This document shows positions 1-54,028 of a stretch of 54,028 nucleotides of DNA, piece after piece. The stretch spans positions 1 to 54,028 of the IMG/VR virus record IMGVR_UViG_3300006754_000024; one strand, given 5' to 3'. The position numbers were made by a program, and so were the translations under genes. The notes beneath the pieces were generated by a model. It was not told the origin of the DNA. It saw nothing but the letters and a program-made list of their open reading frames with translations, and did not search any database. Numbering within the stretch: position 1 is the stretch's first letter; each line of letters starts with the position of its first letter. This stretch comes from a virus (Duplodnaviria; Caudoviricetes).

Positions 1-2
1 AC

Positions 3-251
3 GAATGGACTACCAAGCAGTACGGAGACGCTGTACTGGACACTCCTGTTTCCAGCCATCTGTCTCACCTGGTTCTCGATCTCAATGAGGGATCGTGGAG
101 CCTCGAGACGGAGATGAGAGGCGGTAAGCTCGCGGAGATTAAGCTCGTGAACGCGAGCGCTCCGAAGAAGGCCGCTCCGAAGAAGGCTGCTGCTCCGAAG
201 AAGGCCGCTCCGAAGCGAGCTCCAGCAAAGGCAAAGGGAGCAAAGAAATGA
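3..251 (+). CDS. 5'-truncated protein with a histone H1-like Lys/Ala/Pro C-terminal tail
   Basis: Frame open from nt 3 to TGA 249-251 (not in the ORF track), ending APKKAAPKKAAAPKKAAPKRAPAKAKGAKK; stop overlaps the next ATG. Confidence 0.75.
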   Translation, partial: EWTTKQYGDAVLDTPVSSHLSHLVLDLNEGSWSLETEMRGGKLAEIKLVNASAPKKAAPKKAAAPKKAAPKRAPAKAKGAKK

Positions 252-547
252 GTTTTCCAGTAGTCACCACCGAAGGCTTTCGAGCTCTCGCCAAAGACTC
301 GAAAGGCCGGAATCGAGGCCCCACAGACAAGCTCCTCGAGGTAATCGATCCGGAAGGAAATCATGTGGGATCTTTCTCCATGATTCACAACGATTGCGAG
401 CTCCGTTTCCAATGGTTCGTCAAGATCAAGGACCAGTCCGAACCGGTGAAAATCTGGATGGACAATAGCTTCGAGGCGGTTGATCGGTGGGTGCAATACC
501 CGAGTTCATCCGGGACCAGGACCGTATACCGATCCGAAACAGAGTAG
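248..547 (+). CDS. Hypothetical protein
   Basis: 99 aa; ATGA-coupled to the upstream gene. Confidence 0.6.
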   Translation: MSFPVVTTEGFRALAKDSKGRNRGPTDKLLEVIDPEGNHVGSFSMIHNDCELRFQWFVKIKDQSEPVKIWMDNSFEAVDRWVQYPSSSGTRTVYRSETE

Positions 548-6395: not shown

Positions 6396-7287
6396 CGTCG
6401 ACTCCGAAAGGCCAGTTAAGCAGGGTGAAGCTGAACCGGTCTCCCCATACCTCTTGAGTAGAGTCCAGAAAGTCCAAGAGCTCGTTGTATTCTCCGGCGT
6501 CCCTGATCACAACGCAGCCGGCCGAATAGAAACCCACGTCATCCACGAGGCGATGGGCAGAGGCACGATGCAAATTAATCCCGTAGAAACCTGGGATCGG
6601 ATCGTGGCTCCCCACGTCAATTTTAGAATCCCGCGAATTGTCACGCCATACCGACACCTTATTTCCATGCTGGATCAAAGCTCTGTATTTTCCACGATGA
6701 AAGCCGAAGACCCAGCATCCTCGATGTTGTCCAGTCGCCAACACTGCGCACCCATCCTCTCTCGAGGGATTCTCGAGCCAGGGGATACCCGGATCGGTGG
6801 TCCCACGGTACATATCCATCTGGAGCTCACCGAATTCGTCTTCATAGAGGCATCCGATGAGATCGTTCCATTCGTTCGCATCCTCGAGGATCCGTATTCC
6901 GAAAAGGTTTGGATTGTACTGGCCCCTAAAGAACTCGAATCCCATCCGCTCGATCTCTGCCTTTACCTGGTGAGGAGAGAGCAGGAGGGGGCGCCGAGGC
7001 AGTTCGTAGCTTTCCATGGGGGGATCCTCGAATGGGTTTGGGCCTGGTGTTTCCGGAACGGGGAGGGTGGCACCACAGGAGACGCAGTCGAGCTCTCCAG
7101 AAGAAGGATCGAGACGCTGGTTTTCCGGGTCTTCGCAGCAGCTCCCTTCTTCGATGTCGGGACAGAGCTCGAGAGCCGGTTCTGGGGAGCCAGGCCTTTT
7201 ATCTTCGAGCTGAGACGGAGCTCGGAACTCCCATCCGAAATATCTAACGACAAAGGTCTTGAACCACTTGATAAAGTTCTGCATCAT
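6382..7287 (-). CDS. L,D-transpeptidase-fold (YkuD-like) putative peptidoglycan enzyme
   Basis: TTDPG, GINLHRA...SAGC (His...SxGC catalytic motif); Cys-rich N-terminal extension. Confidence 0.65.
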   Translation of the reverse strand: MMQNFIKWFKTFVVRYFGWEFRAPSQLEDKRPGSPEPALELCPDIEEGSCCEDPENQRLDPSSGELDCVSCGATLPVPETPGPNPFEDPPMESYELPRRPLLLSPHQVKAEIERMGFEFFRGQYNPNLFGIRILEDANEWNDLIGCLYEDEFGELQMDMYRGTTDPGIPWLENPSREDGCAVLATGQHRGCWVFGFHRGKYRALIQHGNKVSVWRDNSRDSKIDVGSHDPIPGFYGINLHRASAHRLVDDVGFYSAGCVVIRDAGEYNELLDFLDSTQEVWGDRFSFTLLNWPFGVDDAQA

Positions 7288-7928
7288 CTACCCGAGATCG
7301 AAAAGTGCTGGTAGTCCTTGGCTCCCTTCCAGTCTCCGCCCCATTTCCAGCCGTTCCGAGCAAATACCTCCGCAATTTCAGGGGTAATGCTCCCCTTCAC
7401 CCGGATAGAGCGATCGGCATACCTCGCGCCTTCGACTGGCTGAACGCTGCCGCCAGCCGAGACGTATGGGTTCACCAAGGGATTGATGTCTATAGCGGTG
7501 CCCTTACTGTGTTCGGACCAGCTGGAGCTACCGGAAACCTTCCGGCAGTTAAACGCCGAAGTGTTGTTCGCTCTCATCGACGCCGCGTCGTTACCTCCGT
7601 ATTTCAGGACCGGATTTACCTTGTCGATACGAAACCCTCTTCCGTGGAGCTCGCGAAATGCGTTCACCAGGCTGTCCGCCGAGTCGGTTGCGACGATCAC
7701 TTTTCCCACCGAGTTCAGCCCGAGATTGTTTCGATAGGTGATCTTAACCATAGAGAGCTCGTCGAGTCCTACAGGACAACCTTCCCGCCAGGTTACCCCA
7801 CGCATGCGTTCTCTTACTGAGTCTGGAATCCGGTCCACGGACGAAACGAACGGACCGAAACGCCGATAGGCCAGGTAGCCACCACCACCAAGGATAGAAA
7901 GACCAAGTAGGAAACGAAATATCCTCAC
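7284..7928 (-). CDS. M15-family zinc peptidase (cell-wall peptidase) with an N-terminal signal anchor
   Basis: FNCR, SEHSKGTAIDINP, WGGDW, DYQHF; GTG start 7928 with GGGGAG RBS; N-terminal FLLGLSILGGGGYLAY. Confidence 0.85.
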   Translation of the reverse strand: MRIFRFLLGLSILGGGGYLAYRRFGPFVSSVDRIPDSVRERMRGVTWREGCPVGLDELSMVKITYRNNLGLNSVGKVIVATDSADSLVNAFRELHGRGFRIDKVNPVLKYGGNDAASMRANNTSAFNCRKVSGSSSWSEHSKGTAIDINPLVNPYVSAGGSVQPVEGARYADRSIRVKGSITPEIAEVFARNGWKWGGDWKGAKDYQHFSISGR

Positions 7929-8808: not shown

Positions 8809-9096
8809 TTAAAGCAGAAAAACAGCCGCAGGAAGTAGGAGCTCGCGCTCGGTGTCGCCACCGACTCCAGCCGAGCGCCGAACCCGCTCTTTGTCGAGCG
8901 TGCCGGTAGCCAGGCGGGGGAGGCACCCTCGGCACACGAGATAGCTCTCGTGGCGCTGGGTCCTCCCGCTCACTACGGGATGGGTATTGATCATCATGGG
9001 AGAATCGTCGCCGCAGAACTCGCATTCGCAAATGTGGACCTGTCCGGGACCGAACACCTCCACGGCTCTTTCGTGATTAGCGTTTTCAATTTCCAC
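8809..9096 (-). CDS. Small zinc-finger protein
   Basis: CEFC...CRGC; overlaps the helicase stop. Confidence 0.55.
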   Translation of the reverse strand: MEIENANHERAVEVFGPGQVHICECEFCGDDSPMMINTHPVVSGRTQRHESYLVCRGCLPRLATGTLDKERVRRSAGVGGDTERELLLPAAVFLL

Positions 9097-10693
9097 GTCT
9101 GATCTTCCTTATGTTTGAGCAAGCGATAGCATAACCCAGTCGGGCCGACGCTTCCCCCATTGTGGCCTGGTCATCCATTGGCACCTTCCAACGCTCGCAC
9201 GCCTCGATGAGCTTCTTGCTGGCCGGGCGGCGCTTCCACGCAGCATCGGCTCGAGAGAGCACGTTATTGCCGAGCTGCTCCACGATCTTTTCTTCGGTAG
9301 AGCGGGCCACGGTAATGAAGGATCCTCTCGATACAGCCAGGTCGTACTTTCGATCACCCTTGTCCTTCAGAACCAAAGCCAGCCACTCTCCGGCAAGAGA
9401 GCTCGGATCAACTGGACGAAGGACGGCGCACACGGATCCCCAGGATGCGAACCATTCATTACCGAACTCGGACCATCCGGCCGACAGCTTCGACTCTCCG
9501 AGAATGTTCACATGGAAAGCCCGCAGCCCTTCTCCCTTCGGCCGGATCTGCACCTGGCGGACCTGGGGGTTTCCCTCTCCTCCAGCTGGAGCGGCGGCCT
9601 GGCGCTCTTGCTCTCTGCTTAGGTCCGCGAACCCGATGAGTCGGTGGGAGGAACTGTTGAATGTGAAGTCGAGCACTTTCCCGCAGGTCTTACCCGGATT
9701 CAGGCGCGTAACGCGCCCCACCTGTTGCACATACACGACTTGGGACATTGTGGGCCGCACGAGAAGAACGGCTCCGAGCTCGGGACAATCCCATCCCTCG
9801 GTGAGAACCATGCAGTTCGTGAGAACGTCGAGCTCCCCCTTTCGGAACCTGGCGAGCGTGGCTTTCCGTGATTCGGTTCCCATCGCTCCCCAGATGGCCG
9901 CAGCTCGAACTCCGTCGGAACGGAACTGCTGCGCCAAGGACTGCGCATGCAGAACGTCGACGCAGAATGCTACCGCTTTGTCTTTCCCGCAGTATTTTCG
10001 ATAGGCCTGAGAGACGAGTCGATTGCAGTCGGCAGTGTTCACGACTGCGCCGAGTTGTCCTTGGTGGAGCTCGCCGCGATTGCGTTCGACATCGTCGAGG
10101 TCGATCCCGGTCTTGATCGCGTAGGCATCGAGCGGGGAAAGGAACCCGTCCTCTACCGCTTTCACAATCGAATAGGAGAAAGCTACCTTCTGAAACACCC
10201 CACCGAGTCCTCTCTGGTCGCCTCTGTACGGTGTGGCCGTCACTCCGAGCACCTTGCAGTCGGTCCTCTGTTCGGCCGCCCACTTGAGCACCTGGCCGTA
10301 AGTGTTCTCGGCCTGGGCGTGGTGGGCTTCGTCGATCACCACAAAGTCAAACGGGACAGGGATCTGCTCCCGTCGTTTTCGGTGGAGGCTCTGGACGCTG
10401 GCCACCACCAGGCGGCTCTGCCATTCGTTTCGAGATCCCTGCACCACCCCAGGCTCGATTCCGGGGTCGATGCTCCTCCACTTTTCGCATGCTTGCTCGA
10501 TGAGTTCGTCTCGATGAGCGAGTACCAGGCCTCGAGCTCGAGGCTCTGTTCTGAGGATCCGGGAAAGCAAAGATCCGAACAATACCGTTTTGCCTGTTCC
10601 GGTGGGCATCGAAACGAGCACCCTGTCGGACTTCTTCCAGCTTTCCAATACGGCCGCTATTCCTTCCTCTTGGTAGGGTCTGAGGTCCATCAT
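9086..10693 (-). CDS. Superfamily 2 DEAH helicase (Irc3/ResIII-like)
   Basis: LRPYQ, MPTGTGKT, DEAHH, TATP, LTEGWD, QQVGRVTR. Confidence 0.95.
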   Translation of the reverse strand: MMDLRPYQEEGIAAVLESWKKSDRVLVSMPTGTGKTVLFGSLLSRILRTEPRARGLVLAHRDELIEQACEKWRSIDPGIEPGVVQGSRNEWQSRLVVASVQSLHRKRREQIPVPFDFVVIDEAHHAQAENTYGQVLKWAAEQRTDCKVLGVTATPYRGDQRGLGGVFQKVAFSYSIVKAVEDGFLSPLDAYAIKTGIDLDDVERNRGELHQGQLGAVVNTADCNRLVSQAYRKYCGKDKAVAFCVDVLHAQSLAQQFRSDGVRAAAIWGAMGTESRKATLARFRKGELDVLTNCMVLTEGWDCPELGAVLLVRPTMSQVVYVQQVGRVTRLNPGKTCGKVLDFTFNSSSHRLIGFADLSREQERQAAAPAGGEGNPQVRQVQIRPKGEGLRAFHVNILGESKLSAGWSEFGNEWFASWGSVCAVLRPVDPSSLAGEWLALVLKDKGDRKYDLAVSRGSFITVARSTEEKIVEQLGNNVLSRADAAWKRRPASKKLIEACERWKVPMDDQATMGEASARLGYAIACSNIRKIRRGN

Positions 10694-10872
10694 TCGCCTT
10701 CCTTCGCGTTGCTGCTCTCTTCGAGGTCTTCCTCGTCCTCGTAGATCACGCCGTCAACTCGCACGCGCCAGTCCCTTCTCTCGTCGGGCTCGTCGATGTC
10801 GTGGTGATAGTGCTGTCGATGCACCGTGTCCGTGATCCACAGCTTGCAGTATGGGCAGAAGAATTCCATCAC
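10690..10872 (-). CDS. Small hypothetical protein (CxxC/His)
   Basis: 60 aa; coupled to both neighbours. Confidence 0.5.
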   Translation of the reverse strand: MMEFFCPYCKLWITDTVHRQHYHHDIDEPDERRDWRVRVDGVIYEDEEDLEESSNAKEGE

Positions 10873-11103
10873 TCACCTTCCTTTGCTTGTCAGTAGCTTG
10901 AGGTATGTCTTCACTTTTCGGGCCTCTTCTCTTTCCCGCTTCTTTCGCTCCAAAGAAGGCGCGGCTCGCTCCGTGAGTTTCCCGGTTTTCTTCGTGCAGG
11001 GGAGACAGTAGCGAACGGCGTCGTTTCGTCGGGGCCGAATGGAGCCGTTAGCTCCCTTGCAGCAAAGAGGGCACACCCACCGGACCCGTTTCTTCTTGGA
11101 CAT
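10873..11103 (-). CDS. Basic zinc-ribbon protein
   Basis: AAGGAG RBS before ATG 11103; CPLC...CLPC. Confidence 0.65.
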   Translation of the reverse strand: MSKKKRVRWVCPLCCKGANGSIRPRRNDAVRYCLPCTKKTGKLTERAAPSLERKKREREEARKVKTYLKLLTSKGR

Positions 11104-11267
11104 ATTTGCTCCTTTGTGCGCACCTTGGCGCTGTCGGGAGCGTAGCACGACCAGCACACGCATTCAACCGAGCTCGAATGCCACAGAGCAGAACAGGGAC
11201 ATTTTCTGTCCTCGCAATAGCGAACTGTCCGTGGTACACCCGTAAGACAACCGGAAAGGAGGACACC
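11104..11267. promoter_or_regulatory. Divergent promoter region
   Basis: Non-coding gap between divergent operons; contains inverted repeat GGACA-N5-TGTCC and CGTGGTACACC (11230-11240). Confidence 0.55.
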
Positions 11268-13110: not shown

Positions 13111-13121
13111 GAGAAATAGAC

Positions 13122-13715: not shown

Positions 13716-13732
13716 GAGTCCCGTTTCCTTTT

Positions 13733-13766
13733 CCCTCCCCCGGCTCGCGGGGGAGGGCTTTCCTTT
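13733..13766 (+). terminator. Probable intrinsic terminator
   Basis: 10-bp stem CCCTCCCCCG/CGGGGGAGGG, loop GCTCG, then CTTTCCTTT. Confidence 0.6.
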
Positions 13767-13792
13767 GGAGCTCGTTCGAGGGATACTCCCAT

Positions 13793-14868: not shown

Positions 14869-14879
14869 GAGTAGGGACA

Positions 14880-16694: not shown

Positions 16695-16709
16695 CTGATC
16701 CCATATTAT
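16681..16709 (+). promoter_or_regulatory. Sigma70-like promoter upstream of the primase-helicase gene
   Basis: TTGCAC (16681-16686), 17-nt spacer, TATTAT (16704-16709). Confidence 0.55.
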
Positions 16710-42607: not shown

Positions 42608-45195
42608 TGCCTGGCTACAAGATCGTCCTTCGCAAAAACGGAGCCAAGCGTGGAGAGCTCACCGGCTACGCCACCAAGAGCTCGGCCGTCGCAGAGGCTC
42701 AGACCCTCGCTGACAGCGCCGGAGGCGGAGTCAAGGTGTACGTGGAGCCGGTGAAGGCCAAAGCCAACAGGAAGGCTCCCAGGCGTCGAAATACGCAGTT
42801 AAAAAGGGACCAGAAGGTAAAACTGAGCGATTCCGCTCTCTCCCGGAGGTACTCTGGCGATCGAGCTAAAGGAAAGCAGTGGCGGGGTACTATATTTGAA
42901 GTGGTCGGACCGCCAGGAAGTGGGGCGGGAGAATGGGGAGCCGAGATGTGGTCCGCCAACGGAGAAAAGGGGTACATCGTCGTAAACCAAACGGATCCTC
43001 ATGGGAGGTGGTACGCATTAGGAGATGTGGTCGCCGCATCCACCGCCACTAAGAAGGCTCCCAGGCGCAAGAAGAATAGCGACAGAGAGCTCGTCGCCTT
43101 CCCCGGAATAAGGAGGCCATCGGACTATCCGGGAGGAAAAAACAGCTACGACGAGGACTTCTTCCAGGGATACCGGGCCGGAGAGAAGGCCTTGGCTCGC
43201 AAACGCAAGACCCCTCTTTCGGGGGTGGACGCCGAGAGGTACTTTCGCAGGTATGGACATGGGCATGGTAGCTGGTGGATCAACGGATTCCGTGCCGCTA
43301 TCGCTGTGGACCGTGGAGAATATGCGACGAAGGACTACAAGATAGCGGTAAAGGTGGGCCTGGTTCATCCTCCGGGACGTTTCAATCCTAAGCGGAAGAA
43401 CAGGAAGACGAAGCACCGTCCAGGAAGCGCGAAGACCCCAGCTGGTTTTCTCTCCACCGAGGGCCAGAAGCTCGTGGTGAGGTCGAATATCACAGGGAAT
43501 ATCCTTCCTAAGAGCTGGACCGGGTTCGCTTTCAGCTTGGACGGAGACTCGGTCATGAAGATCGGGCGTTCGGGGGGCGAGCGTTCCTACGAGGTGGCCA
43601 AGCGGATTCGGAGATCGAACACCAGGAAGAACCCGACAACGGCCGAGGTCGCCAAGCTCGCAAAATGGCAGAACCTAACTGGGCTCTCGAAGTCGAAAAT
43701 CGACAAGCTCGCACAGGAAGCCTATCGCATGGGCGATGTAGGCCACATGAGCACGCTCCAGCTCGGGAAACACTTTTCTCGGTTCCTCCCCGCCAAGTCG
43801 AAGAGCACGCACACCAACCTGAGAGGATGGGGAGACTTTCTCTTCGAGCTCGGATGGTTGGAGCTCCCGCACCTTCCGCGTAAGAACCAGGGCTATGATC
43901 AAACCAAAAAGGTTCTTCAGCAGGCGTCTAAACTCATCGACCAGGGCAAATTCAAACAGGCCGATTCCTTAATCCGTGGTTCGGGTGGAAGCAGGGCAGA
44001 CCTATCGAATATTTTGGGCTCGTCCAGAATGAAGAAGATGGCAACCTGGGCTAGCGGTACCACCAGGCGGAAAAACTATTCGACTGGCGACGCCTGGCTC
44101 CAAGAGGCCGACACGGAAATGGAGGAGGAAGGCACCGTCGGAGCCTTCACCAAGCAGGCCAGGCGAGCCGGGTACAAGGATACAATGGCCTTCGCTCGAG
44201 CCGTCATGAAGGGCTGGCGGAGCGGGAAGAAAAAGGTCTACAACAAGAAGACCAGAAAGCAGCAAGGGATCACCCAAAAAACGATGTACCGGGCCAACTT
44301 CGCGATCAATGCTCAGAAGCGGCGGAATCCCCACGGAGCGCCCCAACGCATGACAATGGACCTGGGCGAATTCAGGTGGATCGCTGGCCCCTACTCGACC
44401 GTCGGGAAGGCAAACAAGGCGAAGGAAGCCTCTCACCATCGATCCTGGGGCGCCAGGTACCCCAAGACCTACACGCGCGTAAGGAAGGAAGGAGGCGCCT
44501 ACCATGTCTATTCTTACGATCCAGAGGTTGCCTCTCGTTACAACCCAGCATGGGGCGAGATGGCCGGCGCGGTAGGAAAGGGGCTCGGAAAGGCCGGCAA
44601 AGCCGCCTGGAAGGGCGCCAAGCGAGGAGCCCAGTACGGCTACGAGTACGGAAAGGAAGGAGCCGCTCGCGGAAAGGAGACGGCACAGGCGGCCGTGATC
44701 GCTGCCAACCTGAAGGACTTTCAGAGATGCGCCAAGAAGCTCCACATCACTCCGGGAGAGCTCCAACAGCTCGAGCCCTATGTCGACGCCATCGACAAGG
44801 CGCAGGCCCATATCGAGTCGACCCAAGAACGGCGCTCCTCGAGGGGAGCTCAGAGACAGACTGCTCTCGCCAAGAAATGGAACGGGAAGCGTCGGAATTC
44901 AACGCCTGGAAAACGTGGGTGGCACCCGGTACTTTTCGGCTCGAATCTGATAATCTCAGGTGTCGGCCGGGATACGAATGGGAACAAGGTCATCAAAGTT
45001 AGTTACCCCAACTCGAGAGCCTGGTCGATCCAGACTCTCGGAACGCCGATGCACGGGCTCTTGCGGGGCGTTACAGCGAGATATGAAATCCTGCCGGACA
45101 TCTCGAGCGCCATCGAGCCCATGCTCATCGACCACATCCGAAAGTACGGATCTGCAAAGCAAAAGAAGGGACTACGAGTCTACTCCGGCGGGTAG
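42607..45195 (+). CDS. Basic modular polyprotein of ~10 small modules separated by [RK][RK]N/NP
   Basis: TGATG start at 42607; delimiters every ~60-120 aa. Confidence 0.75.
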   Translation: MPGYKIVLRKNGAKRGELTGYATKSSAVAEAQTLADSAGGGVKVYVEPVKAKANRKAPRRRNTQLKRDQKVKLSDSALSRRYSGDRAKGKQWRGTIFEVVGPPGSGAGEWGAEMWSANGEKGYIVVNQTDPHGRWYALGDVVAASTATKKAPRRKKNSDRELVAFPGIRRPSDYPGGKNSYDEDFFQGYRAGEKALARKRKTPLSGVDAERYFRRYGHGHGSWWINGFRAAIAVDRGEYATKDYKIAVKVGLVHPPGRFNPKRKNRKTKHRPGSAKTPAGFLSTEGQKLVVRSNITGNILPKSWTGFAFSLDGDSVMKIGRSGGERSYEVAKRIRRSNTRKNPTTAEVAKLAKWQNLTGLSKSKIDKLAQEAYRMGDVGHMSTLQLGKHFSRFLPAKSKSTHTNLRGWGDFLFELGWLELPHLPRKNQGYDQTKKVLQQASKLIDQGKFKQADSLIRGSGGSRADLSNILGSSRMKKMATWASGTTRRKNYSTGDAWLQEADTEMEEEGTVGAFTKQARRAGYKDTMAFARAVMKGWRSGKKKVYNKKTRKQQGITQKTMYRANFAINAQKRRNPHGAPQRMTMDLGEFRWIAGPYSTVGKANKAKEASHHRSWGARYPKTYTRVRKEGGAYHVYSYDPEVASRYNPAWGEMAGAVGKGLGKAGKAAWKGAKRGAQYGYEYGKEGAARGKETAQAAVIAANLKDFQRCAKKLHITPGELQQLEPYVDAIDKAQAHIESTQERRSSRGAQRQTALAKKWNGKRRNSTPGKRGWHPVLFGSNLIISGVGRDTNGNKVIKVSYPNSRAWSIQTLGTPMHGLLRGVTARYEILPDISSAIEPMLIDHIRKYGSAKQKKGLRVYSGG

Positions 45196-45201: not shown

Positions 45202-48200
45202 ATGATCGAAGAACTCAAAAAGCGGATACGGAACGCTGGCACAGAGAGCTCGGAAAAACGAGAAGTACAGCGCGAGCTCGAGAGCCATGGACACCGGAAA
45301 CATCCAGAGTCCCACCAGGCCACCCTCGAAGACCGCAGGGTGGTACGCATGTACCTATGGAGGGCTACCCCGCTGGGGCACCTCTGCCTGGTTACCGGTC
45401 CCAGCGTGGAGCCCAGTCTCTACGAGCTCTACGAGGCCGCTCCAGGAGAAGAGCCCTCAGAGGTTTACTTCCCTTCAAAGCGAGGCAAGCCGGCTCTCAC
45501 CGTTCGCACGAATCCCCAGGCCCGAGTAGGCAAGGTCCGAGAGGCTAAGGACGGTAGCAAATACGTGCTTTGGAGGCCCGTATTAGCGGACGGCAGCCGA
45601 CCTCGCGTGTATCTGGACGCCGAGGAGCCGGGGATTGACGCCGAGCTCATAGATGTGATGGAAGCTCAGGAACAGCTGGCAGCTGGAAAGAGAGCGGTGG
45701 AGCGTCGCGTAAAGGAAGCCAAAAAGGAAGGGAAGCGGGGTATTTTCAAGGGAGGCTCCGGACGGAAGATCATAACTGGAGCTCCGAAGGCTAAGCCCAT
45801 GGAGCGGGCCGCCTCTCGCACGCCTCTTTTTGACTCTGAGGGAAAGGAATATCTCGCTACATATATGGTAATCCCAGCCCACAGGGACGGGATGGGAGAC
45901 CTTCGATCCTCGAACCTACCTGGTTCCTTCGAGGAGACTCCCCACTACCCCACCGTCTTCCAAGCCCGAAGCCTACAGCGACTCGGAGAGACGCGGAAGA
46001 TCGAGAAGATTGCCGCCAACCTGGACGCGGAAAGAGTTCTCCTCCCGCACAGCGATGCCACCCTGGGCACCCCGGTGGTCTGGGAGGGAGACGATAAAGA
46101 GCACAGAATCGCTGGAGAGCAAGTCTATACCCCGAAAGGCACCTACTATGTGCTGGGTGGGAACGGACGAGCAATCGCGATCCTGATGGCCCCCACGGGG
46201 AAATATCAGTCCTACTCGAGACGGGGAAGGTCTCTCTGGTCCGACGTGTGGCCCGCTGGGAGCTCTCCAGCTGGCACGAGAGACGTTCTGGTCCGCCTGG
46301 CCACCAAGCCCGACGGAACGCCACTGTCCTTCGCTCAGGCCCGTACTCTTGCGGGACGAACCCAGAAGAGCGCTTCTGGAGAAGAGTCTCCCATCGGAAA
46401 GGCTCTCTCGCTCATCCGTTCACTCGGCATCGAGCGCGTGGCCGATCTCCCGCCTTTTGTCTGGAAGGGGATAATCACCCAGGACAATGTGGAAGAGTTC
46501 CAGGAGTTCAATCCAGCCTTTGCGAGAGCGGTGTTTGCTTCGATGGGGGCAGCTCGAGCAGAGAGCTACCAGCAGGACTCGGCGCTTCTCGCTACGCTCT
46601 TCAACGACATTATGGTCGGCTACCTTCCCAGGCGCTTCCAGCTCCAAGGGTTCGTTTCTGAGAAACAGGAGCGAGCTCTACTCGCCGCTCTTCCTATTAT
46701 CGTCGCGATCCACCAGGGAGTTCAGGATCGATCGGTCCAAGACAAATGGGACCTTTTCCCGTTGCTCGATGCGGCTTCTCGTTTCGCCCAGGCAATCAAG
46801 AACAAGTCGGATTCGCAGGCGATTGCCATGGTCGAGGCCGCTGCCTCTCAGATTCAGATGGGCGAAGGCACGGGAATAGCGGAGAAGTTCAAGTCTCTGT
46901 TCGACGAACTCCCTCTCTTGGGTGTTTTGTTCGGCCTGGTCCTCAAGAAAGCAGAGAAGTCTCGCGACCCGGCATTGACGGTAGAGAAATACCTCACCCC
47001 CTACGCTGCCGCAGCATTCGATCCCGGAGAGAGCGCTGCCCAGTCGGGACTGTTTGCGGCTCCAGGCCGTCCCGATGCCGGCAAAGACCCCACCGAGATC
47101 CTTGCTACCGAGCTCGGCGTCCGCCTACCGCGCCGGATGCGCGAGGCGACGGTGGAGCAGGGGCGGTTGATCGCGAATCCCAAATTCCCCATGGGAGGAG
47201 AAAAAAAGCCGTGGGCTCCGGCGATGGTCGAGGCCATCGACCAGTTCCCGGTGGGCGCCATCGTCAAGCTTCGACCAACGCAGGGGTGGAGTCGCACATT
47301 CCCTCATCGGATCCTCTCCGATTCCGTCCTCGATAACCACTACCGGGTCGGAACCCACACCTGGATGGAGAACCTCCAGAGCGTATTCCTGGAGACGGAC
47401 CCCGTACACCCTGAGACTCACGAGCTACTGAGGGATAGTCGTGGTGGCAAGTACAACTACCAGGTGCTCGGTACCGAGGATGTGGAGCTCGTCTGGAGCC
47501 CAGAGCCAGAGCCGGACCCGGAGGAGAGCCAACAACGCCTCTTGAACCGGAAAGGACAGCTCCGCTTGCGGAAGGCCGGGAGCAGGATCCTCGAGGAGCT
47601 CTACCTACGCGGCCCTACCCCCTACGCTGAGACTCCCGAAGGAAAGCTCGCTGATGGACCGCAAGAGCTCCTCGATAAAGGGCTGGCGTCGAAGAAGACG
47701 TGCATCGCAGCTGAACATACCCTTTACGACCGGGAGACCTGTGTTCTGCGCCTGACGAAGAGGGGAAGGGACTACGCGAAGAATCGCCGTAGAGCCGAGC
47801 GCACGCACCAGGCCGCCAGGCAGGGGAAGCTGTGGAACAAAGGCCCCCACTATTTCGATGAACTCGGAGAGCTCGGAGCTCCGTCGATTGGTGAGAAGGG
47901 GTACAAGCCGGCTCCCGATTTCGGCAACGCCTACGGAGGGCAGACACCCTACGAGCTCGCGGACCGCCTGGTGGGGAACGCTGAGGTATTGATGGAAGAG
48001 CCCGAGCTCTACTGGGCCTACTGTGCCGAGCTCCCGGAGGCTTGTGGAGGCCTGGCCGATTCGGATTTCTCCTTAGCGGATATGCTTCAAGTCCCTTTTT
48101 CCGGTCCGGACGGAAAGCGAATGACTGAAGCGGAGCGGGCGGGAATTGCGCTTTCTGCCCTGGCCGTCACTGCGGAAGCGCTGCCTGACAGGTGGAGCGG

Positions 48201-51200
48201 AGAGAAGATCATACTCGGCGAGAGAAAGAGCAGGAAGGGACCCACTACCTTGATCGAGGCTCGAAGAGGCGACTCCGGGGAGGTTCCGATGTGGGCTGCG
48301 ACTGCGGCCCTTACCGACTGGCTGGCCTCGCTGGTTCCCGGCTATTCCCAGGTCTTGCGCCTGGTTAACATCGACAAGAAGACAGCACAGGACTTCATCG
48401 AGAAGCACCACTCGGCGCTCCCCTACCTAAACGCTCGTGGCCTGCTCTTTGCCCTTGGATTGATGAAGGGCTCCCGCCTGGTGGCCGTAGCGACGGTTAA
48501 CTCGAATACGGCCAACCTGAGCAAGACCCGTAGGGTATTGAGCGGCGAGCTCGACGTGAAAGATGTCCTCGAGCTCACCCGTGTGGCATCGGATGGGAGC
48601 GTAAAGGGGGCTGCGTCGAAGCTCGTGGCCCGTGTGATCGATATCATGGAGCAGGGCAAGCGGAGCGGAGGCGACGCACCCGCGCTCCTAATGACTTACC
48701 AGCTCGCTACCGAGTCTGGAACGACCTACAAGGCCTTGAAGGACAAGGGATTGAGGCCCGTGGCAGAGGTAAAGGGCTCAGCTCCGAGCGGAGCTCGTGG
48801 TGGAGACCCGGCCGAAGACCGAGCTCTGGCACAGGTGGACAAAATACGATGGGAGTGCTGCGTCGACCCTCCCGCGATGCGGGCGGACTGGGACATCCTG
48901 GGACGCGAGCAGAAGACTCTCTGGAACCCGAAGGAAGGGGAAACCTCCTGGTTCAAGGGGGATCAGGTTCGATTCACGGGTGCCCAGAGCGAACATGATG
49001 GGTTCTGGCAGGCCGTCTATATTGACGGGCACCGGAAAGGCCAGATCGTCTGGGTCTACCCTGAACATGCAGGCGTTCGGATGCTCCACGGAGAAGAAAA
49101 ACTCCAGCCCCGCGACAATCCGAAGAAGTCTCCGCCTGGCTCCTTCAAGTCCTGGGAAGAATACTATCTGTGGAAGATGAACGGGATCAACAGAGCCATG
49201 CTGATCACGGAAGACGCTATCCGAAGCATGGACCCGGAGCGAGCCAACATGCCCGGTGGCGCGGTGGCCCACTACCGCACCCTCGAGAAGAAACGCCGCG
49301 ATCTCCTCGAGCACATGGAGCTCGCAGGGGTGAAGCTCAGGAACCCCGGAGAGCCAGAGGACCGGTTCGCCCCCTTCCTGAACGCAAAGGTGGGCCAGGT
49401 GTTTCTGGTTAGGGCTACGGACTATCCTGGAGCTCCGAAACGGAAATGGATGAAAGACACGCTGCTGGCCTATCGGGTCTACAAAAAGCCCGATATCTCG
49501 GCGGTCGCGCCCTACCTTATCGACCCGGAGGGCGCTGAGATCGAGGTCGAGCCGGTAGGCGGCACGAAGGGACGCGACGGAACCTTCCTAATCCGACCCA
49601 ATTTTGAGAAAGATAAGCTCCGCACTATGATCCTCCTCCGGGATAAAAACGGCCACCATGTGACGGGGCACCCCATCGAGTTCGTCCGCCATGCTGCCGG
49701 CCACTTGGATCTACCCGCTGAGAGCTCGGGCCAGACGGTGATGTTCAACCCCGAAGAAGCACCCGGCCAGGTAGAGTTCGAGTTCCTGGGAGCGGTGCCC
49801 GTTCTTCACTTTGCCTCTGGGACGAACAGGCCTGGAAGTATCCGGGGATTCGCAGACCTGGGCAAAGCCGTGGGCTCTGCCTTCGCCTCTGTAGACAAAA
49901 AGTCCGGCCGCTGGGTTCGCGAATGTCGCGGACCCTGTCTCGAGGAGCTCGCTCGAGCCGCTTCGTTGGGTATACCGGTGTTTCTGGATTCAGGTGCATT
50001 TAGCGAGGTCGACTTCCCCGAAGACGGTCCGCCAGTTGTAGCGGTGCCCATACCAGAAGAGAGCTGGGCCGAGAGGTTCGATGTCTATCGTTACCTGGCC
50101 GACGCGGGAGGGAAACTGGCCAACGTGGTAGCGCCCGACATGGTAGGCCACCAGGTGGAGAGCTTTCAACGCCTATCCGCCTACAAAGACGAGGTGAACG
50201 AGCTCCTGGATATGGGCGCATCGGTTCTCGTGCCGCTCCAGTTAGGCCCGATTCCGCTTCACGAATATCACGACCAGGTCGACGAGCTCCTGGGCCGGAA
50301 GGACTGGATCCCAGCTCTTCCGTTCCAGAATGCGGCTACCTCCCCTACGCAGCTGGGAGAATACCTGCGCAAAAAGACTCCAGTTCGTCTTCATCTCCTG
50401 GGAATAGGACCCAGGAAGAAAGCAGCTACAGCCGTGGCTCAAGAGATCAGAGAGAACTCTCCGGGTACCCAGGTACAGATGGACAGTGTGGTGATCAAGG
50501 CGCACGTAGGGCGCAAGAGACGGAAGACCGGAGATCCTCGAGGGGAGATAACAGCTGCTCAAGACGAGGCTCGAGAGCAGCTGCTCGAGGAACGCTACAT
50601 CGGCTCCCAGCGAGAGTCCGTTCCTGACTACACGGACCTGGTAGGAATGCCGAGCTCCTGGGCATCCGAGGCGGCACTGAAGCGACTCTCGAGTGCGGCC
50701 CAACTCTCGAGCTCGGAGCGGAAAGAGCTCATCGCCGACCCCGACGAGTTCTTCCAGCGCGAAACCTTCGCTGGCATCGATCACGGGATCCCGTTCTACC
50801 TCGAGCTCGAGCAACCTATTGAGCTCGAGCTCGGTAAGCGTTTCCACTCTCTCGAGACTTTCGAGGCCCAACGCATGGGAATCCGAGAGGGGCTCAAGGG
50901 AATCTACCCAGGGGGCCAGGAATACATTACCAACCCGGAGCAAGAAGAGGGGCACGTTCCGGGAATCGACACTCCGGGACATCCCGGACTTCAGATGGGT
51001 CTTTTCGGTGGTGCATCCTATTCGGACGAGCAAACCGCATCGCCTGGCAGAATAACTATCTTGAACATGGGACTTGGCCGCGACTCGCTCACCATGCTCT
51101 GTCTGCTCGCAGATGGAGAGCTCGTCTGGGACGGTAAGAAACACGGACCCGAAGACGTGGACGCCGTCGTGTTCTCCGATACAGGCGGAGAATGGAAGCA

Positions 51201-52722
51201 CACCATGGACCTAATTCCGAAGGTCGAGAAGTTTGCCAAGAAGCACGGCATCCGATGGCTCAACCTTCAGAAGCCACAGGCAGGCACTAAGAGCGGAGAA
51301 CTACGCGACAGCTGGCTCCAGGCCATGAAAACAGCGAGACAAGATCGAGAGCAAGGATGGGCCGAAGTATATCGGGAAGTGATTGCTCCGATGTACCGCG
51401 AAAAAGATGTCCGGCTCGATGAGATCCGCGCCGAAAAGAAGGCGGAGATCAAAGAGAAAAGAGCCGAGCTCAAGAACCAGGGAATGGACAAGGATCAGAT
51501 GGCACCGGAGCTCGACGCTATCAGAGAGAAATACGCCGTCAGGATGAAGGCTCTCAAAAAGAAGTACAAGGCCAAGGCTGCGGAGATCAAAAAGGAAGGA
51601 GGATTCGCAGGGAAGGCGGAGCGTGCGTGGTGGGCTCCTCAAGACAAGGAGCGGAGGCTCCACTATGGCACCATCGAAGAGCGAGCGGCTGCGGGTGTCT
51701 ATCACTTGCGCCCTGAGATCCTGGTGGACTTCGCCTGGAAAGGAACGATCCCCCTCCGCGACGATAAGAGCTGCACGGGAAACCACAAGGTGGCTCCGAT
51801 TCGGAAGGTGACAGAGGACCTGGCCATCGAAAAGTTCGGCCCATGGGCTACTAATACTAAGTGGGGGAGCGAGGTCCGTGACAAGAAGCGCCTTCCTCAC
51901 TTGAATCTGATCGGTCTCGCCGCCGACGAAACTGACAGGCTCGCGAAAGGGGGAGACGTGGGCTGCTTCGAGGCGAGCTACGTTACCGAGGCCTACCCGT
52001 TGGAGGAGATGGGAATCGCGAAAAACGACGAGCAGCCCTATCTCGATAGCTGCGGATTCGGAGAGACTCGAAAAAGCGGGTGCTGGCTGTGCCCCTACCA
52101 ACCTCTCGGATGGTGGTGGGCGCTCTCTGTCCTTCATCCGGACAAGTTCGAGCGGGCAGCACAGGCGGAGTACCAGGCGACACTCCGGGATCCAAAGCTC
52201 TATTTCATCGGACGCAAGAAGAAGGGGAAGTCTCTGTCGCTGGCCGAGGCGGTAAAGGTATGGAGAGAAGAGAATCCAGACGCCTCTCCGGAAGAAGTGC
52301 TCGACAAGCAATATGCAAAGTGCAAGGTGAAGTTTGGGAAGAAGAAGAACCCAGTAGCACCCGACTCCTGCTGTCCCGACTGCAACCGATTCGTGGACCT
52401 ATGGAACCAGTTCGGAGAACCTGGATGGCTAGAACGCTACGGCTCGAGCTCGAGCACCAGGCCCAACACTCCGGCGTCTGGGGTTCTCGTCAACACGGGA
52501 AGCAAGCTGTCGATTCAAAGCCTTTCCTTCGATCGAGCTCTATTCAACAAGACCGAGGCGACGCGCTGGGCCAGGCAGCACGGGTTTTCGGTTCCGAAAG
52601 TCCACCTGACACCGAACCTGATTAAGATACGCCAGACTCATCCCTCCAAGTTCAAGCGCGGATCGTTCCGAACCAAGTCACTGACAGAAGGAGTAAAGGC
52701 AATTGTAGGAGTTCCACGATGA
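45202..52722 (+). CDS. 2506-aa polyvalent protein with ParB-like, Mom-like GNAT, TGT/DpdA-like and PAPS-reductase-like domains
   Basis: YPTVFQAR/GTPVVW/GGNGR (ddrB-like ParB); AQDFIEKHH/LELTRVASDG/TYQLATESG (Mom/XF1762-like); FLDSGAFS/APD/PLQ/HLLG (TGT fold); MGLGRDS/FSDTGGE/YPL/KSGCWLCPY (PP-loop). Confidence 0.85.
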   Translation: MIEELKKRIRNAGTESSEKREVQRELESHGHRKHPESHQATLEDRRVVRMYLWRATPLGHLCLVTGPSVEPSLYELYEAAPGEEPSEVYFPSKRGKPALTVRTNPQARVGKVREAKDGSKYVLWRPVLADGSRPRVYLDAEEPGIDAELIDVMEAQEQLAAGKRAVERRVKEAKKEGKRGIFKGGSGRKIITGAPKAKPMERAASRTPLFDSEGKEYLATYMVIPAHRDGMGDLRSSNLPGSFEETPHYPTVFQARSLQRLGETRKIEKIAANLDAERVLLPHSDATLGTPVVWEGDDKEHRIAGEQVYTPKGTYYVLGGNGRAIAILMAPTGKYQSYSRRGRSLWSDVWPAGSSPAGTRDVLVRLATKPDGTPLSFAQARTLAGRTQKSASGEESPIGKALSLIRSLGIERVADLPPFVWKGIITQDNVEEFQEFNPAFARAVFASMGAARAESYQQDSALLATLFNDIMVGYLPRRFQLQGFVSEKQERALLAALPIIVAIHQGVQDRSVQDKWDLFPLLDAASRFAQAIKNKSDSQAIAMVEAAASQIQMGEGTGIAEKFKSLFDELPLLGVLFGLVLKKAEKSRDPALTVEKYLTPYAAAAFDPGESAAQSGLFAAPGRPDAGKDPTEILATELGVRLPRRMREATVEQGRLIANPKFPMGGEKKPWAPAMVEAIDQFPVGAIVKLRPTQGWSRTFPHRILSDSVLDNHYRVGTHTWMENLQSVFLETDPVHPETHELLRDSRGGKYNYQVLGTEDVELVWSPEPEPDPEESQQRLLNRKGQLRLRKAGSRILEELYLRGPTPYAETPEGKLADGPQELLDKGLASKKTCIAAEHTLYDRETCVLRLTKRGRDYAKNRRRAERTHQAARQGKLWNKGPHYFDELGELGAPSIGEKGYKPAPDFGNAYGGQTPYELADRLVGNAEVLMEEPELYWAYCAELPEACGGLADSDFSLADMLQVPFSGPDGKRMTEAERAGIALSALAVTAEALPDRWSGEKIILGERKSRKGPTTLIEARRGDSGEVPMWAATAALTDWLASLVPGYSQVLRLVNIDKKTAQDFIEKHHSALPYLNARGLLFALGLMKGSRLVAVATVNSNTANLSKTRRVLSGELDVKDVLELTRVASDGSVKGAASKLVARVIDIMEQGKRSGGDAPALLMTYQLATESGTTYKALKDKGLRPVAEVKGSAPSGARGGDPAEDRALAQVDKIRWECCVDPPAMRADWDILGREQKTLWNPKEGETSWFKGDQVRFTGAQSEHDGFWQAVYIDGHRKGQIVWVYPEHAGVRMLHGEEKLQPRDNPKKSPPGSFKSWEEYYLWKMNGINRAMLITEDAIRSMDPERANMPGGAVAHYRTLEKKRRDLLEHMELAGVKLRNPGEPEDRFAPFLNAKVGQVFLVRATDYPGAPKRKWMKDTLLAYRVYKKPDISAVAPYLIDPEGAEIEVEPVGGTKGRDGTFLIRPNFEKDKLRTMILLRDKNGHHVTGHPIEFVRHAAGHLDLPAESSGQTVMFNPEEAPGQVEFEFLGAVPVLHFASGTNRPGSIRGFADLGKAVGSAFASVDKKSGRWVRECRGPCLEELARAASLGIPVFLDSGAFSEVDFPEDGPPVVAVPIPEESWAERFDVYRYLADAGGKLANVVAPDMVGHQVESFQRLSAYKDEVNELLDMGASVLVPLQLGPIPLHEYHDQVDELLGRKDWIPALPFQNAATSPTQLGEYLRKKTPVRLHLLGIGPRKKAATAVAQEIRENSPGTQVQMDSVVIKAHVGRKRRKTGDPRGEITAAQDEAREQLLEERYIGSQRESVPDYTDLVGMPSSWASEAALKRLSSAAQLSSSERKELIADPDEFFQRETFAGIDHGIPFYLELEQPIELELGKRFHSLETFEAQRMGIREGLKGIYPGGQEYITNPEQEEGHVPGIDTPGHPGLQMGLFGGASYSDEQTASPGRITILNMGLGRDSLTMLCLLADGELVWDGKKHGPEDVDAVVFSDTGGEWKHTMDLIPKVEKFAKKHGIRWLNLQKPQAGTKSGELRDSWLQAMKTARQDREQGWAEVYREVIAPMYREKDVRLDEIRAEKKAEIKEKRAELKNQGMDKDQMAPELDAIREKYAVRMKALKKKYKAKAAEIKKEGGFAGKAERAWWAPQDKERRLHYGTIEERAAAGVYHLRPEILVDFAWKGTIPLRDDKSCTGNHKVAPIRKVTEDLAIEKFGPWATNTKWGSEVRDKKRLPHLNLIGLAADETDRLAKGGDVGCFEASYVTEAYPLEEMGIAKNDEQPYLDSCGFGETRKSGCWLCPYQPLGWWWALSVLHPDKFERAAQAEYQATLRDPKLYFIGRKKKGKSLSLAEAVKVWREENPDASPEEVLDKQYAKCKVKFGKKKNPVAPDSCCPDCNRFVDLWNQFGEPGWLERYGSSSSTRPNTPASGVLVNTGSKLSIQSLSFDRALFNKTEATRWARQHGFSVPKVHLTPNLIKIRQTHPSKFKRGSFRTKSLTEGVKAIVGVPR

Positions 52723-53084
52723 CTAACTTTCCCACGGTATGGATGGATACAATCTGCACGGGCAACCCGGCCCAGGTTCTCCGTCTATACATGCCGAATG
52801 CCGTACTCGTTCCGACCTACGATCCCAAGGTTCTCCGGGGCCATCCCGAGCTCCTGGCATATTTCAATCGCTTTATGGCAAAGGAAGGTCTCTGCGGAAA
52901 GATTCAGAGTACCTTTGTCCAGGATGTCGGGAGGGCGAAAGTCTTGAGCGGACTCTACAAATTCCAGTTTATCGAGGATGGGATACCGAAGAGCGTAAAT
53001 GCGCGATATACCTTCGTTATCGTTCCAACTCGCGCCGGGTGGAGGATTGCCGAACACCATTCATCCGAGGTACCCGACGAATGA
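52719..53084 (+). CDS. NTF2/SnoaL-like protein (SgcJ/EcaC, CaMKII-association-domain-like)
   Basis: LY..NAVLVPT, SGLY.F, ARYTFV, W.I.EHHSS..P. Confidence 0.8.
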   Translation: MTNFPTVWMDTICTGNPAQVLRLYMPNAVLVPTYDPKVLRGHPELLAYFNRFMAKEGLCGKIQSTFVQDVGRAKVLSGLYKFQFIEDGIPKSVNARYTFVIVPTRAGWRIAEHHSSEVPDE

Positions 53085-54028
53085 GTATCCGAAAAGTCAA
53101 GACCGTTAAGGGATTCACCATCTGGAGGAATACCGACTGGGACGAATACATAGTTACTCCGCCAGGCACAACGAAGCCGAAGGAAGACGAGACGGCTCCC
53201 AGCTGGTACCACACGGATGATAAGCAGGACGCATTCGACACTGCGAATGCGATGGCAGGAGATCATCCCGGAGCCTGGCGAGAGAACCCGAAGGTCCATT
53301 CCCAGACCATCGATCACTGGCTGAATATGATTGACCCGAAACACGGAGTAACCCGCAAGTCGTTGAAGTCTATGGCGGATATGTCGCGTAGGCTCCACGA
53401 GGATCCGAAACGTGTAGGGGAATATTTCTCGGATTATCTCCGTGATTTCCCTTATGGAAAGGACAAAAGGGCGGAGGATTTCGGGAAGTTCCTGCACTCA
53501 TGGGGCGACGTTCCGAGACGTAGGAATCACCACCTGGTCAAAGGCGAAGAGGCGAAGCTCTCGAACGAATATATGGCCTGGCTCAAGAAATATGGGTCCG
53601 AGCACTACTCGGCTACGGAGCTCGAGACGCGGATCCAATCCGCTCCTCACGACGTATTCGAGGTGATCGAAGTCCATCCACACGGGTACACCGTTCTTTA
53701 CGAGCACCCTTTGAAGGAGGAATTCTATTCAGACGAAGCCCTTGTTTCGGCCTCGAGCTCGAGTCGGAATTGGCCTGGCGACAACTACAAGGGCCAGACT
53801 CCTTCCGACTTTCTGCTCCAAGGCGCGAAGCGAAACCCGAAAGTGAAGGTTCGAGCTCACGCTCGAGATCGGCCTGGTTCAGTTAAGGTGCGAGCTCACA
53901 AACGAGGGCGCCCCGAGCCCGAGCTCACCGAAGAGGAGGCCCATATCCTTTACAAGCTCGGAGCAGCAATCGAGAATTCGGGAGATCCCGACGCAACCCT
54001 GGTGTTTTATGAAGACGAAGAAGAATGG
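53081..54028 (+). CDS. 3'-truncated modular protein with NP/RRRN delimiters (not in the ORF track)
   Basis: ATGA-coupled start; frame open for 316 codons to the window end; WRENP, PRRRN, AKRNP; VKVRAH.R twice. Confidence 0.75.
   Translation, partial: MSIRKVKTVKGFTIWRNTDWDEYIVTPPGTTKPKEDETAPSWYHTDDKQDAFDTANAMAGDHPGAWRENPKVHSQTIDHWLNMIDPKHGVTRKSLKSMADMSRRLHEDPKRVGEYFSDYLRDFPYGKDKRAEDFGKFLHSWGDVPRRRNHHLVKGEEAKLSNEYMAWLKKYGSEHYSATELETRIQSAPHDVFEVIEVHPHGYTVLYEHPLKEEFYSDEALVSASSSSRNWPGDNYKGQTPSDFLLQGAKRNPKVKVRAHARDRPGSVKVRAHKRGRPEPELTEEEAHILYKLGAAIENSGDPDATLVFYEDEEEW

Follow-up and report, generated by a model that had tools for sequence, protein, structure and literature searches.

How can a bacterial virus build its particle and take up its genome when the genes usually responsible cannot be recognised? 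This question is raised by IMG/VR record IMGVR_UViG_3300006754_000024, a single contig of 54,028 bp that is classed as a virus record in its source collection and that we analysed over its whole length (positions 1 to 54,028, hereafter the window). A first-pass annotation, made without database searches, had read it as a tailless, membrane-containing bacterial virus of a new lineage that assembles around condensed DNA without a visible packaging ATPase. Our analysis places the window in a widespread and apparently undescribed lineage of bacterial viruses, whose nearest characterised relative, judged by protein sequence, is SSIP-1, the Salisaeta icosahedral phage 1. For the particle itself, we give about even odds to the reading that the window covers the larger part of a genome, that of an uncultivated marine bacterial virus with a tailless, membrane-containing particle, which assembles together with protein-condensed circular DNA and without a motor.

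To our knowledge, all well-studied bacterial double-stranded DNA viruses with large genomes pump their DNA into a preformed shell by a terminase or an FtsK/A32-type ATPase, and we know of motor-free encapsidation only from small archaeal and eukaryotic viruses. Gene calling in the window, with a codon-usage heuristic made for this analysis, gave 69 genes (g1 to g69) that cover 94% of its length, 57 of them on the plus strand; the guanine-cytosine content is 0.55-0.60. Pfam scans covered 50 of the 69 proteins and PHROG scans covered 20, and the 17 proteins in neither scan are all of 103 amino acids or fewer. Among the scanned proteins, no terminase, portal, HK97 capsid, tail, FtsK or A32 family was found. 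At E ≤ 0.01 the Pfam scans assigned 13 proteins to a family, nine of them above the curated cut-off (g8, g16, g19, g23, g26, g31, g37, g38 and g68), and the PHROG scans returned matches for four proteins, none of them structural and only that of g67 informative. Six-frame searches were applied to five records, namely the window and four of the relatives described below. TerL_ATPase, Terminase_3, FtsK_SpoIIIE, Pox_A32, Phage_portal and Phage_capsid were each found in 0 of the five, and the control genomes responded; other portal and capsid Pfam families were covered by the protein scans only. Terminase_6N was found in 0 of five relatives. The absence of terminase, portal, HK97 capsid and tail genes noted in the first-pass annotation is thus borne out, and no A32, FtsK or terminase family appeared in the profile search, within the 50 of 69 proteins that the Pfam scans reached.

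The same absence can be followed in related genomes. Megablast of window positions 30000-54028 against GenBank phages gave no match, and locus scans of viral contigs with single proteins (g62, the capsid candidate discussed below, and g69) found no relatives. Alignment-based scans returned seven loci in viral contigs and four in 185,579 species genomes, all four in metagenome-assembled genomes (MAGs), and a scan of metagenome contigs returned 118 confirmed loci of the g62 family, of which 80 were kept. The comparison set comprised the window and five whole viral records (six genomes), plus a 92.7-kb MAG contig, G008:C152. Twelve genes occur in at least five of the six genomes (g26, g34, g36, g37, g39, g41, g44, g52, g58, g61, g62 and g63), their order is preserved, and the module is also present in G008:C152. 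Two relatives have complete circular maps: in G001 (72,988 bp) the ends share a repeat of 127 bp and a PolA gene runs in frame across them, which gives a map of 72.9 kb, and in G008:C152 (92,743 bp) they share one of 141 bp, which gives a map of 92.6 kb. The latter is homologous to the other genomes along its length, except for a block of small open reading frames (ORFs), at about 6.4-27.6 kb, without a homolog in them. Genome size in the lineage ranges from 54 to more than 100 kb. No description of the lineage, or of such relatives of SSIP-1, was found in the literature searched, which did not extend to supplements or most subscription journals. This literature result and the 561 protein clusters homologous to g62 agree with the earlier proposal of a new lineage.

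Motor proteins were also sought by motif. The credible Walker A motifs of the window are confined to three proteins:

9086-10693, minus strand: g19, superfamily 2 (SF2) helicase with a Walker A motif
12265-13110: g23, AAA_24 protein with a Walker A motif
16708-19722: g32, P-loop protein of 1004 amino acids, family not assigned

These are the proteins that had been named in the first-pass annotation as a helicase, a Sak4-like ATPase and a primase-helicase. No P-loop pattern was present in the virion-module proteins of the window and its relatives, nor in any of the 12 proteins kept in at least five of the six genomes. The ORFs of G001 that were scanned against the family libraries (16) include PolA, an SMC-like ATPase, SNF2 and SF2 helicases, DUF3987, AAA_24, NUDIX and exonuclease proteins; the P-loop proteins of G008 (12 ORFs scanned) are an SNF2-like helicase, an intein-bearing helicase and a VapE primase-helicase. 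Neither scan found a packaging or head-tail family. When every called ORF of the relatives was scanned for P-loop patterns, the same families came up, plus G003_8 (562 amino acids, GPAGTGKT), which was not among the family-scanned ORFs, and three non-canonical matches. AAA_24 proteins occur in the window, G001, G002, G003 and G005, beside exonuclease genes as in recombination modules, and no AAA_24 homolog was found in the complete genome G008. We considered the AAA_24 protein as a packaging ATPase and rated it unlikely, because it is absent from G008 and sits in exonuclease-containing recombination blocks. As far as sequence methods can tell, the lineage has no conserved NTPase that is plausible as a packaging motor, and the window, like its two complete circular relatives, appears to lack every Caudoviricetes hallmark and any recognisable packaging NTPase. 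The earlier statement that no packaging ATPase is visible therefore stands. As a separate observation on the helicases, the one in G008 (L036:15751-19023, minus strand, 1090 amino acids, PHROG 62) is interrupted by an intein splicing domain that closely follows the Walker A motif.

If no motor can be seen, the next question is what the shell might be made of. The candidates lie together:

40212-40859, plus strand: g62, 215 amino acids, main capsid-protein candidate, predicted jelly-roll-like beta-sandwich
40931-41554, plus strand: g63, 207 amino acids, second small beta protein, Gly/Pro-rich at the N-terminus, its C-terminal domain of 150 amino acids conserved
41565-42200, plus strand: g64, 211 amino acids, beta-sandwich, possible minor capsid, penton or spike protein
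42200-42607, plus strand: g65, 135 amino acids, small protein after g64

The best conserved protein of the lineage is g62, with an identity far above that of its neighbours; its family comprises the 561 clusters at 45-84% identity, on contigs of up to 131 kb and all unnamed. An AlphaFold2 model from a 39-row alignment is an all-beta sandwich of moderate quality, with a predicted local distance difference test score (pLDDT) of 64.8 and a predicted template-modelling score (pTM) of 0.61. The small all-beta protein on which the first-pass annotation had based its capsid proposal is thus real. A Foldseek search of the model against the PDB gave nothing at E ≤ 1e-3; the weak list below that level consists mostly of single-jelly-roll capsid and cement proteins, including PRD1 P5, SPV1 and HCIV-1, and jelly-roll cement proteins of tailed phages are also among the matches. 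The suggested comparison with SPV1, P23-77 and SH1 capsid proteins thus yields a jelly-roll-like fold and weak SPV1 and HCIV-1 matches, none of them at that threshold. The best BFVD match is an unnamed viral protein of 211 amino acids (E 2.1e-4, probability 1.00, TM-score 0.46-0.47 over 213 columns). For this entry, I1ZBH9, the cluster look-up returned UniParc identifiers only, and the accession was found in none of the papers searched. In the Atlas, a weak feature lead (0.76) connects g62 with PM2 P2 capsid domains. No match to g62 was found by tblastn in phages or in 72,556 plasmid records. In two relatives the g62 gene occurs in tandem copies (G006:C4:5429-6890 and G007:C8:7789-9199), an arrangement that recalls the SSIP-1 paralogs gp45 and gp46.

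Among the neighbours, g63 is kept beside g62 in five of the six genomes, and its Atlas matches are only unnamed viral clusters, with a weak feature lead (0.75) to the P23-77 VP17 barrel family; the Atlas labels the clusters related to g62 and g63 as Uroviricota. The g64 gene was found in four of the six genomes by blastp and in five by tblastn, and its model, also jelly-roll-like, is as close to carbohydrate-binding and GOLD-type sandwiches as to capsid proteins. A weak homolog of g65 was found in G004 only, and g65 has no Pfam or PHROG match. The g62, g63 and g64 families showed no relationship to one another, the g62-g64 and g62-g63 profile comparisons giving a probability of about 1% or less. 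A complex prediction for g62 (residues 20-215) with g63 (residues 55-207) gave a score of 0.00 and a mark of 0.32, which weighs neither way. The evidence on fold is weak, with one of the two models (g62 and g64) of moderate confidence, and the predicted fold class of g62 would fit a capsid role without proving one.

Directly upstream of g62, in all six genomes, lies the gene that may account for the DNA. It is listed here with a second basic protein of the same region:

38850-40154, plus strand: g61, 434 amino acids, protamine-like and Arg-rich at the N-terminus, then hydrophobic segments and GYGELEVMS repeats
42607-45195, plus strand: g66, 862 amino acids, 19% Arg+Lys, repeated RRKN-type motifs, no family match

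Residues 1-130 of g61 contain 58 Arg+Lys and no Asp or Glu, and its orthologs have 37-66 Arg+Lys and no acidic residue in the N-terminus, a bias found in six of six orthologs. The protamine-like protein of the first-pass annotation is therefore present, and from its composition we propose that g61 may be a DNA-condensing membrane protein. Arg+Lys contents of 15-21% are also found in g42, g43 and g66, the last of which is conserved among relatives only in pieces. Repeats of the 'NP-RRRR' and 'RRRN(G/A/T)T' types were seen in both g61 (38850-39250) and g66, and NPRRRR is common to g61 orthologs elsewhere.

The many membrane proteins that had been noted were likewise found, and they concentrate in this part of the window. 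A transmembrane (TM) segment is predicted in 12 of the 28 module genes (20426-40154) and in three of the 41 genes outside the module, and ten of the 12 are C-terminal anchors. The C-terminally anchored run consists of g40, g43, g45, g46, g47, g51, g52, g55, one uncalled ORF and g56. The virion module as we define it extends from g34 to g64 and continues with g66 and g67. Its remaining features, with the gene that follows it, are:

20426-22144, plus strand: g34, 572 amino acids, first conserved module protein, long Arg/Glu/Gln-rich coiled-coil-like middle
23147-23923, plus strand: g37, 258 amino acids, transglutaminase-like with a C-terminal TM anchor, Pfam Transglut_core 2.3e-7
23920-24627, plus strand: g38, N-acetylmuramoyl-L-alanine amidase, Pfam Amidase_2 1.6e-31
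24627-38450, plus strand: mid-module genes, with core g39, g41 (HELGH motif), g44, g52 and g58 and basic g42, g43 and g53
34850-35848: extra uncalled ORF, read by eye, among the C-terminally anchored membrane proteins
45202-52722, plus strand: g67, 2506 amino acids, polyvalent DNA-modification-type protein
52719-53084, directly after g67: g68, SnoaL/CaMKII-association-domain-like, 2.2e-11

The g34 gene is kept in five of the six genomes and has no Pfam, PHROG or PDB sequence match, and the scanned mid-module proteins have no Pfam or PHROG family match. In g67, PHROG similarity was found to PAPS-reductase-like (5.6e-13, residues 1941-2350) and Mom-like (7.5e-9, residues 1050-1178) families, in addition to a weak Pfam ddrB-ParB match, and its first 100 amino acids are kept at the same position in G001 and G002. 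Polyvalent proteins of phages and conjugative elements have reportedly been described by Iyer and colleagues in 2017; g67 is like them in joining ParB-like, Mom-like and PAPS-reductase-like modules in one chain of 2506 amino acids.

The module also shows a recurrent motif, G[YF]G, mostly as [AS]GYG[AE], in g37, g42, g43, g46, g49, g51, g53, g61 and g62 (23147-40154). The window proteins hold 22 copies, compared with 8.6 +/- 2.9 after shuffling, a count of 22 being reached in 0 of 200 shuffles; the motif is enriched in G004 (20 vs 5.3), G005 (25 vs 13.1) and G003 (14 vs 7.0) but not in G001 and G002. It could be a processing or docking signal. Beside it, the lineage conserves the transglutaminase-like (papain-fold) g37 and the HELGH-motif g41. 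A separate observation concerns two proteins of the relatives, L033:4778-6355 in G008 and L011:308-1633 in G001, whose N-terminal 50 or so amino acids resemble PHROG 4577 ('tail protein'); the middle part of the G008 protein is similar to families of tail-fibre or head-decoration proteins. We take both as probable vertex spike or receptor-binding proteins, and no counterpart was recognised in the window.

The sequence indicates a bacterial host, since two enzymes act on peptidoglycan, the amidase g38 and a second cell-wall enzyme encoded elsewhere:

7284-7805, minus strand: g16, Peptidase_M15_4 cell-wall peptidase, Pfam 1.6e-23

The muralytic enzymes from which a bacterial host had been deduced are thus confirmed as families, and Shine-Dalgarno-like sites precede many window genes. 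A g62 profile run over 401 genomes of the phylum of MAG G006 gave one match, G006 itself. The MAG labels (two Gemmatimonadota, one Alphaproteobacteria and one 'proteobacterium') were rejected as host evidence, as they are binning results only.

Which known virus comes closest? Reviews (PMC6260650, PMC4958249, PMC6356626) describe SSIP-1 as a 100-nm, T=49, tailless virus with an internal membrane and a circular 44-kb genome; they give it two types of major capsid protein, with the mark 'single jelly roll?', and leave it unclassified. Its annotated structural proteins include gp34, gp40, gp43 (2319 amino acids) and gp44-gp48 (241, 210, 211, 256 and 132 amino acids). The link to the window is g37, which matches the structural protein gp34 by blastp (2.5e-9, with matches from five genomes) and by a cluster hidden Markov model (HMM; 1.4e-11); both proteins combine Transglut_core with a C-terminal TM segment. 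Through this match SSIP-1 is nearer than the Portogloboviridae, which the first-pass annotation had offered as the comparison. Further likenesses are a giant protein beside small ones (gp43 with gp44-gp48, and g67 with g62-g65 of 215, 207, 211 and 135 amino acids), several C-terminally anchored membrane proteins in the module, a tyrosine-integrase-like gene and a bacterial host. One G004 protein shares 42% identity with a domain of gp43 (3e-33), and residues 2189-2321 of g67 resemble SSIP-1 ORF25 (4e-8). From its position and the structural status of gp43, g67 may be packaged with the DNA.

The two also differ. The giant protein precedes the small ones in SSIP-1 and follows them in the window, the SSIP-1 genome measures 44 kb compared with 54 to more than 100 kb in the lineage, and one of the structural proteins of SSIP-1, gp40, is a P-loop ATPase that shows a Walker A motif, an AAA_25 match (5e-11) and weak KaiC and AAA_24 matches. 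No gp40 homolog was found in seven genomes (the window, five relatives and G008) at phmmer E ≤ 1, the best tblastn E being 1.6. Conversely, no match to g61 or its family was found in SSIP-1 (blastp E ≤ 0.05, cluster HMM E ≤ 0.1), and hhalign and hmmsearch comparisons with all 57 SSIP-1 proteins matched only gp34 and the integrase. The SSIP-1 proteins gp45 and gp46 are paralogous (gp45 finds gp46 at 1.5e-4). Aligned with a 61-row gp45/gp46 profile, the g62 profile has a probability of 0.4%, and the alignment is collinear over 150 columns with several of the most conserved residues paired; we take this as a lead and not as a result. For g63 and g64, the comparison with the gp45/gp46 family likewise gave probabilities of about 1% or less. 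Both gp46 and ORF35 have 211 amino acids, like the best BFVD match of g62, an entry of unverified identity.

Other tailless viruses are more distant. In the Helvetiavirae, which have two capsid proteins with a vertical single jelly roll each, the packaging ATPase gene lies beside the capsid genes and genomes are 16-31 kb, and SPV1, of the Portogloboviridae, with the single-jelly-roll capsid proteins VP4 and VP10, has a genome of about 20 kb. The window differs from the Helvetiavirae in having no FtsK/A32-type ATPase (0 of five records) and no sequence match to them; P23-77, IN93, SH1, HHIV-2 and HCIV-1 are stated to encode a conserved packaging ATPase (PMC4958249). The Portogloboviridae differ in their archaeal Sulfolobus host, whereas the peptidoglycan hydrolases of the window indicate a bacterial one, and SPV1 has no sequence relationship to the window and a fold match no stronger than that to unrelated sandwiches. 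Tectiviridae, Corticoviridae and Autolykiviridae are tailless with an internal membrane, as the lineage would be from its genes, but neither a capsid protein of double-jelly-roll size nor an FtsK or A32 ATPase is present in the window; a review table gives the genomes of those three families as 10-20 kb.

The observations may be joined as follows. Small jelly-roll-like proteins would form the shell, with g62 as the main one and g63, g64 and g65 as partners or vertex proteins, and about a dozen tail-anchored membrane proteins would populate an internal membrane. The Arg-rich, membrane-anchored g61 would neutralise and condense the replicated circular genome on a virus-modified patch of membrane, perhaps assisted by the basic g42, g43 and g66, after which the jelly-roll proteins would close the shell around the condensed DNA. 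The transglutaminase-like g37 and the polyvalent g67 might be carried in the virion for cell-wall entry and DNA protection, and the amidase and the M15 peptidase would lyse the host and free the progeny. Because neither the module nor the conserved proteins contain a P-loop NTPase, encapsidation is most likely not driven by a virus-encoded motor, and co-assembly of shell and membrane around condensed DNA seems more likely. With regard to the tailless membrane virus of the first-pass annotation, the missing hallmarks and the jelly-roll-like fold speak for it, while the capsid, the membrane and the mode of assembly are parts that we infer. A broader claim, that the lineage is a new high-rank group with genomes of 54 to more than 100 kb, a jelly-roll shell, an internal membrane, protamine-condensed circular DNA and no motor at all, is conceivable, but we consider it doubtful.

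Several points weigh against the co-assembly reading. Motor-free assembly would depart from SSIP-1, which has the virion ATPase gp40, and genomes of 73 to more than 100 kb would be unprecedented for a virus without a motor; a host-encoded motor, or one diverged beyond recognition, could be at work. The family-library scans reached a minority of the relatives' ORFs (16 of 95 in G001 and 12 of 136 in G008). The g62, g63 and g64 proteins show no sequence or profile similarity to gp44-gp48 of SSIP-1, and their family profiles found nothing meaningful among PDB sequences. In addition, the features of the virion are predictions from genes.

A further point on the same side is that the window is probably incomplete as a genome, which the first-pass annotation had not noted. 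Both ends cut through open frames, and no tRNA gene or end repeat was found in the whole 54,028 bp. A contig of 13,428 bases from run X2 extends 10.3 kb beyond the 3' end and one from run X3 extends 0.55 kb beyond it, so this end is an assembly break and not a molecular end. PolA, found in G001, G002, G003, G005 and G008, is missing from the window; together with the contigs beyond the 3' end, this makes it probable that the window is not the whole genome. A circular genome of 54 kb may be kept in mind as the alternative. The last six bases, GAATGG (54023-54028), equal bases 3-8 and would fuse g69 to g1 in frame; as proof of circularity this overlap was rejected as too short to count. CheckV gave a completeness of 35% for the window and only 53% for the circularly closed 73-kb G001. 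Automatic tools thus seem to misjudge the lineage, as the CheckV values and the Uroviricota labels on Atlas clusters suggest. With respect to habitat, sequence of the window occurs in 15 runs from 12 studies labelled as marine or seawater metagenome, and at least 93% of sampled words were present in three runs, two of which may be its source.

How far do other explanations account for the same genes? We regard as unlikely that the same tailless membrane virion is filled by a motor, be it a divergent viral protein, a replication ATPase doing double duty such as AAA_24, or a host translocase. The precedent would be gp40 of SSIP-1, a structural protein of the RecA/KaiC-like superfamily to which AAA_24 also belongs; AAA_24 is present in the window and four relatives, and several conserved module proteins have no assigned fold, which leaves room for such a protein. 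What lowers its probability is that the complete G008 has no AAA_24, that the AAA_24 genes adjoin exonuclease genes, that gp40 has no homolog in the seven genomes and that the module proteins have no P-loop pattern. Somewhat less probable still is an enveloped or pleomorphic, non-icosahedral virus in which the beta-sandwich proteins are spikes or matrix. Such a virus would also do without a packaging ATPase, and the 12 TM proteins among 28 module genes, the membrane anchor of the DNA-binding candidate g61 and the closeness of the g64 model to carbohydrate-binding and GOLD-type sandwiches suit it. The fold neighbours of g62, however, are mostly icosahedral single-jelly-roll capsid proteins, its conservation is that of a shell protein, the nearest known virus is the icosahedral SSIP-1, and two cell-wall hydrolases point to lytic release.

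There is only a small chance that the window belongs to a highly divergent tailed phage whose head and tail genes escape the profiles or lie outside it. The probable incompleteness of the window leaves space for them, tailed-phage cement proteins occur among the fold matches, the Atlas label is Uroviricota and proteins of the relatives have short similarity to PHROG tail and tail-fibre families; yet these similarities, over about 50-100 residues, are in keeping with spike domains. Of all phage proteins TerL is usually the one most readily recognised, and the scans of the two complete circular relatives turned up no TerL, portal or HK97 family. The scanned P-loop proteins all belong to replication or recombination families, with G003_8 and other listed ORFs outside the scans and g32 unassigned. 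We consider it very improbable that the window is a non-viral mobile element, a plasmid or integrative element whose beta-sandwich and membrane proteins have another surface function. Its integrase, helicase, primase-helicase and polyvalent ParB/Mom/PAPS-reductase-type protein could be found there, as such polyvalent proteins occur in conjugative elements. However, no conjugation ATPase or other extra P-loop protein was found, lysis enzymes are present, g62 gave no tblastn match in the 72,556 plasmid records and only four loci in the 185,579 species genomes, all in MAGs, the records are classed as viral in the source collection and g37 has a homolog in SSIP-1 that is a proven virion protein.

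The remaining features are those of genome maintenance, most of them in a replication, recombination and integration block:

9086-19722: the block as assigned from Pfam, with g19, g23, g26, g31 and g32
within 9086-19722: g26, tyrosine integrase (Pfam)
within 9086-19722: g31, RuvC-like protein (Pfam)
elsewhere in the window: g8, Dam methylase, Pfam match above the cut-off

A phmmer search of g32 and g34 against PDB sequences found nothing. In the stretch g22-g24 (11178-13715), g22 ends in a cluster of Cys residues and precedes the AAA_24 gene g23, which is followed by the small g24, a layout that we take to be like that of exonuclease, Sak4 and single-strand-binding recombination modules; g22 and g24 have no family match.

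A tailless, membrane-containing phage is a kind already known from SSIP-1; what is unusual here is that a packaging ATPase is lacking, that a membrane protein is protamine-like and that the genome is so large. If the broader claim of a new high-rank group is right, its members would be the largest non-tailed prokaryotic viruses known. A common aquatic lineage that has no such enzyme but a conserved protamine-like membrane protein would raise the questions of how 50-100 kb of DNA enters a particle and what size a capsid without a tail can reach. Virus-detection tools would then also be shown to mislabel such genomes, as the Uroviricota labels and the 53% for the closed G001 illustrate. With 561 protein-collection clusters and, from a single metagenome scan, 118 confirmed loci, the g62 family is a ready survey marker, and the orphan phage SSIP-1 would gain a large family of relatives.

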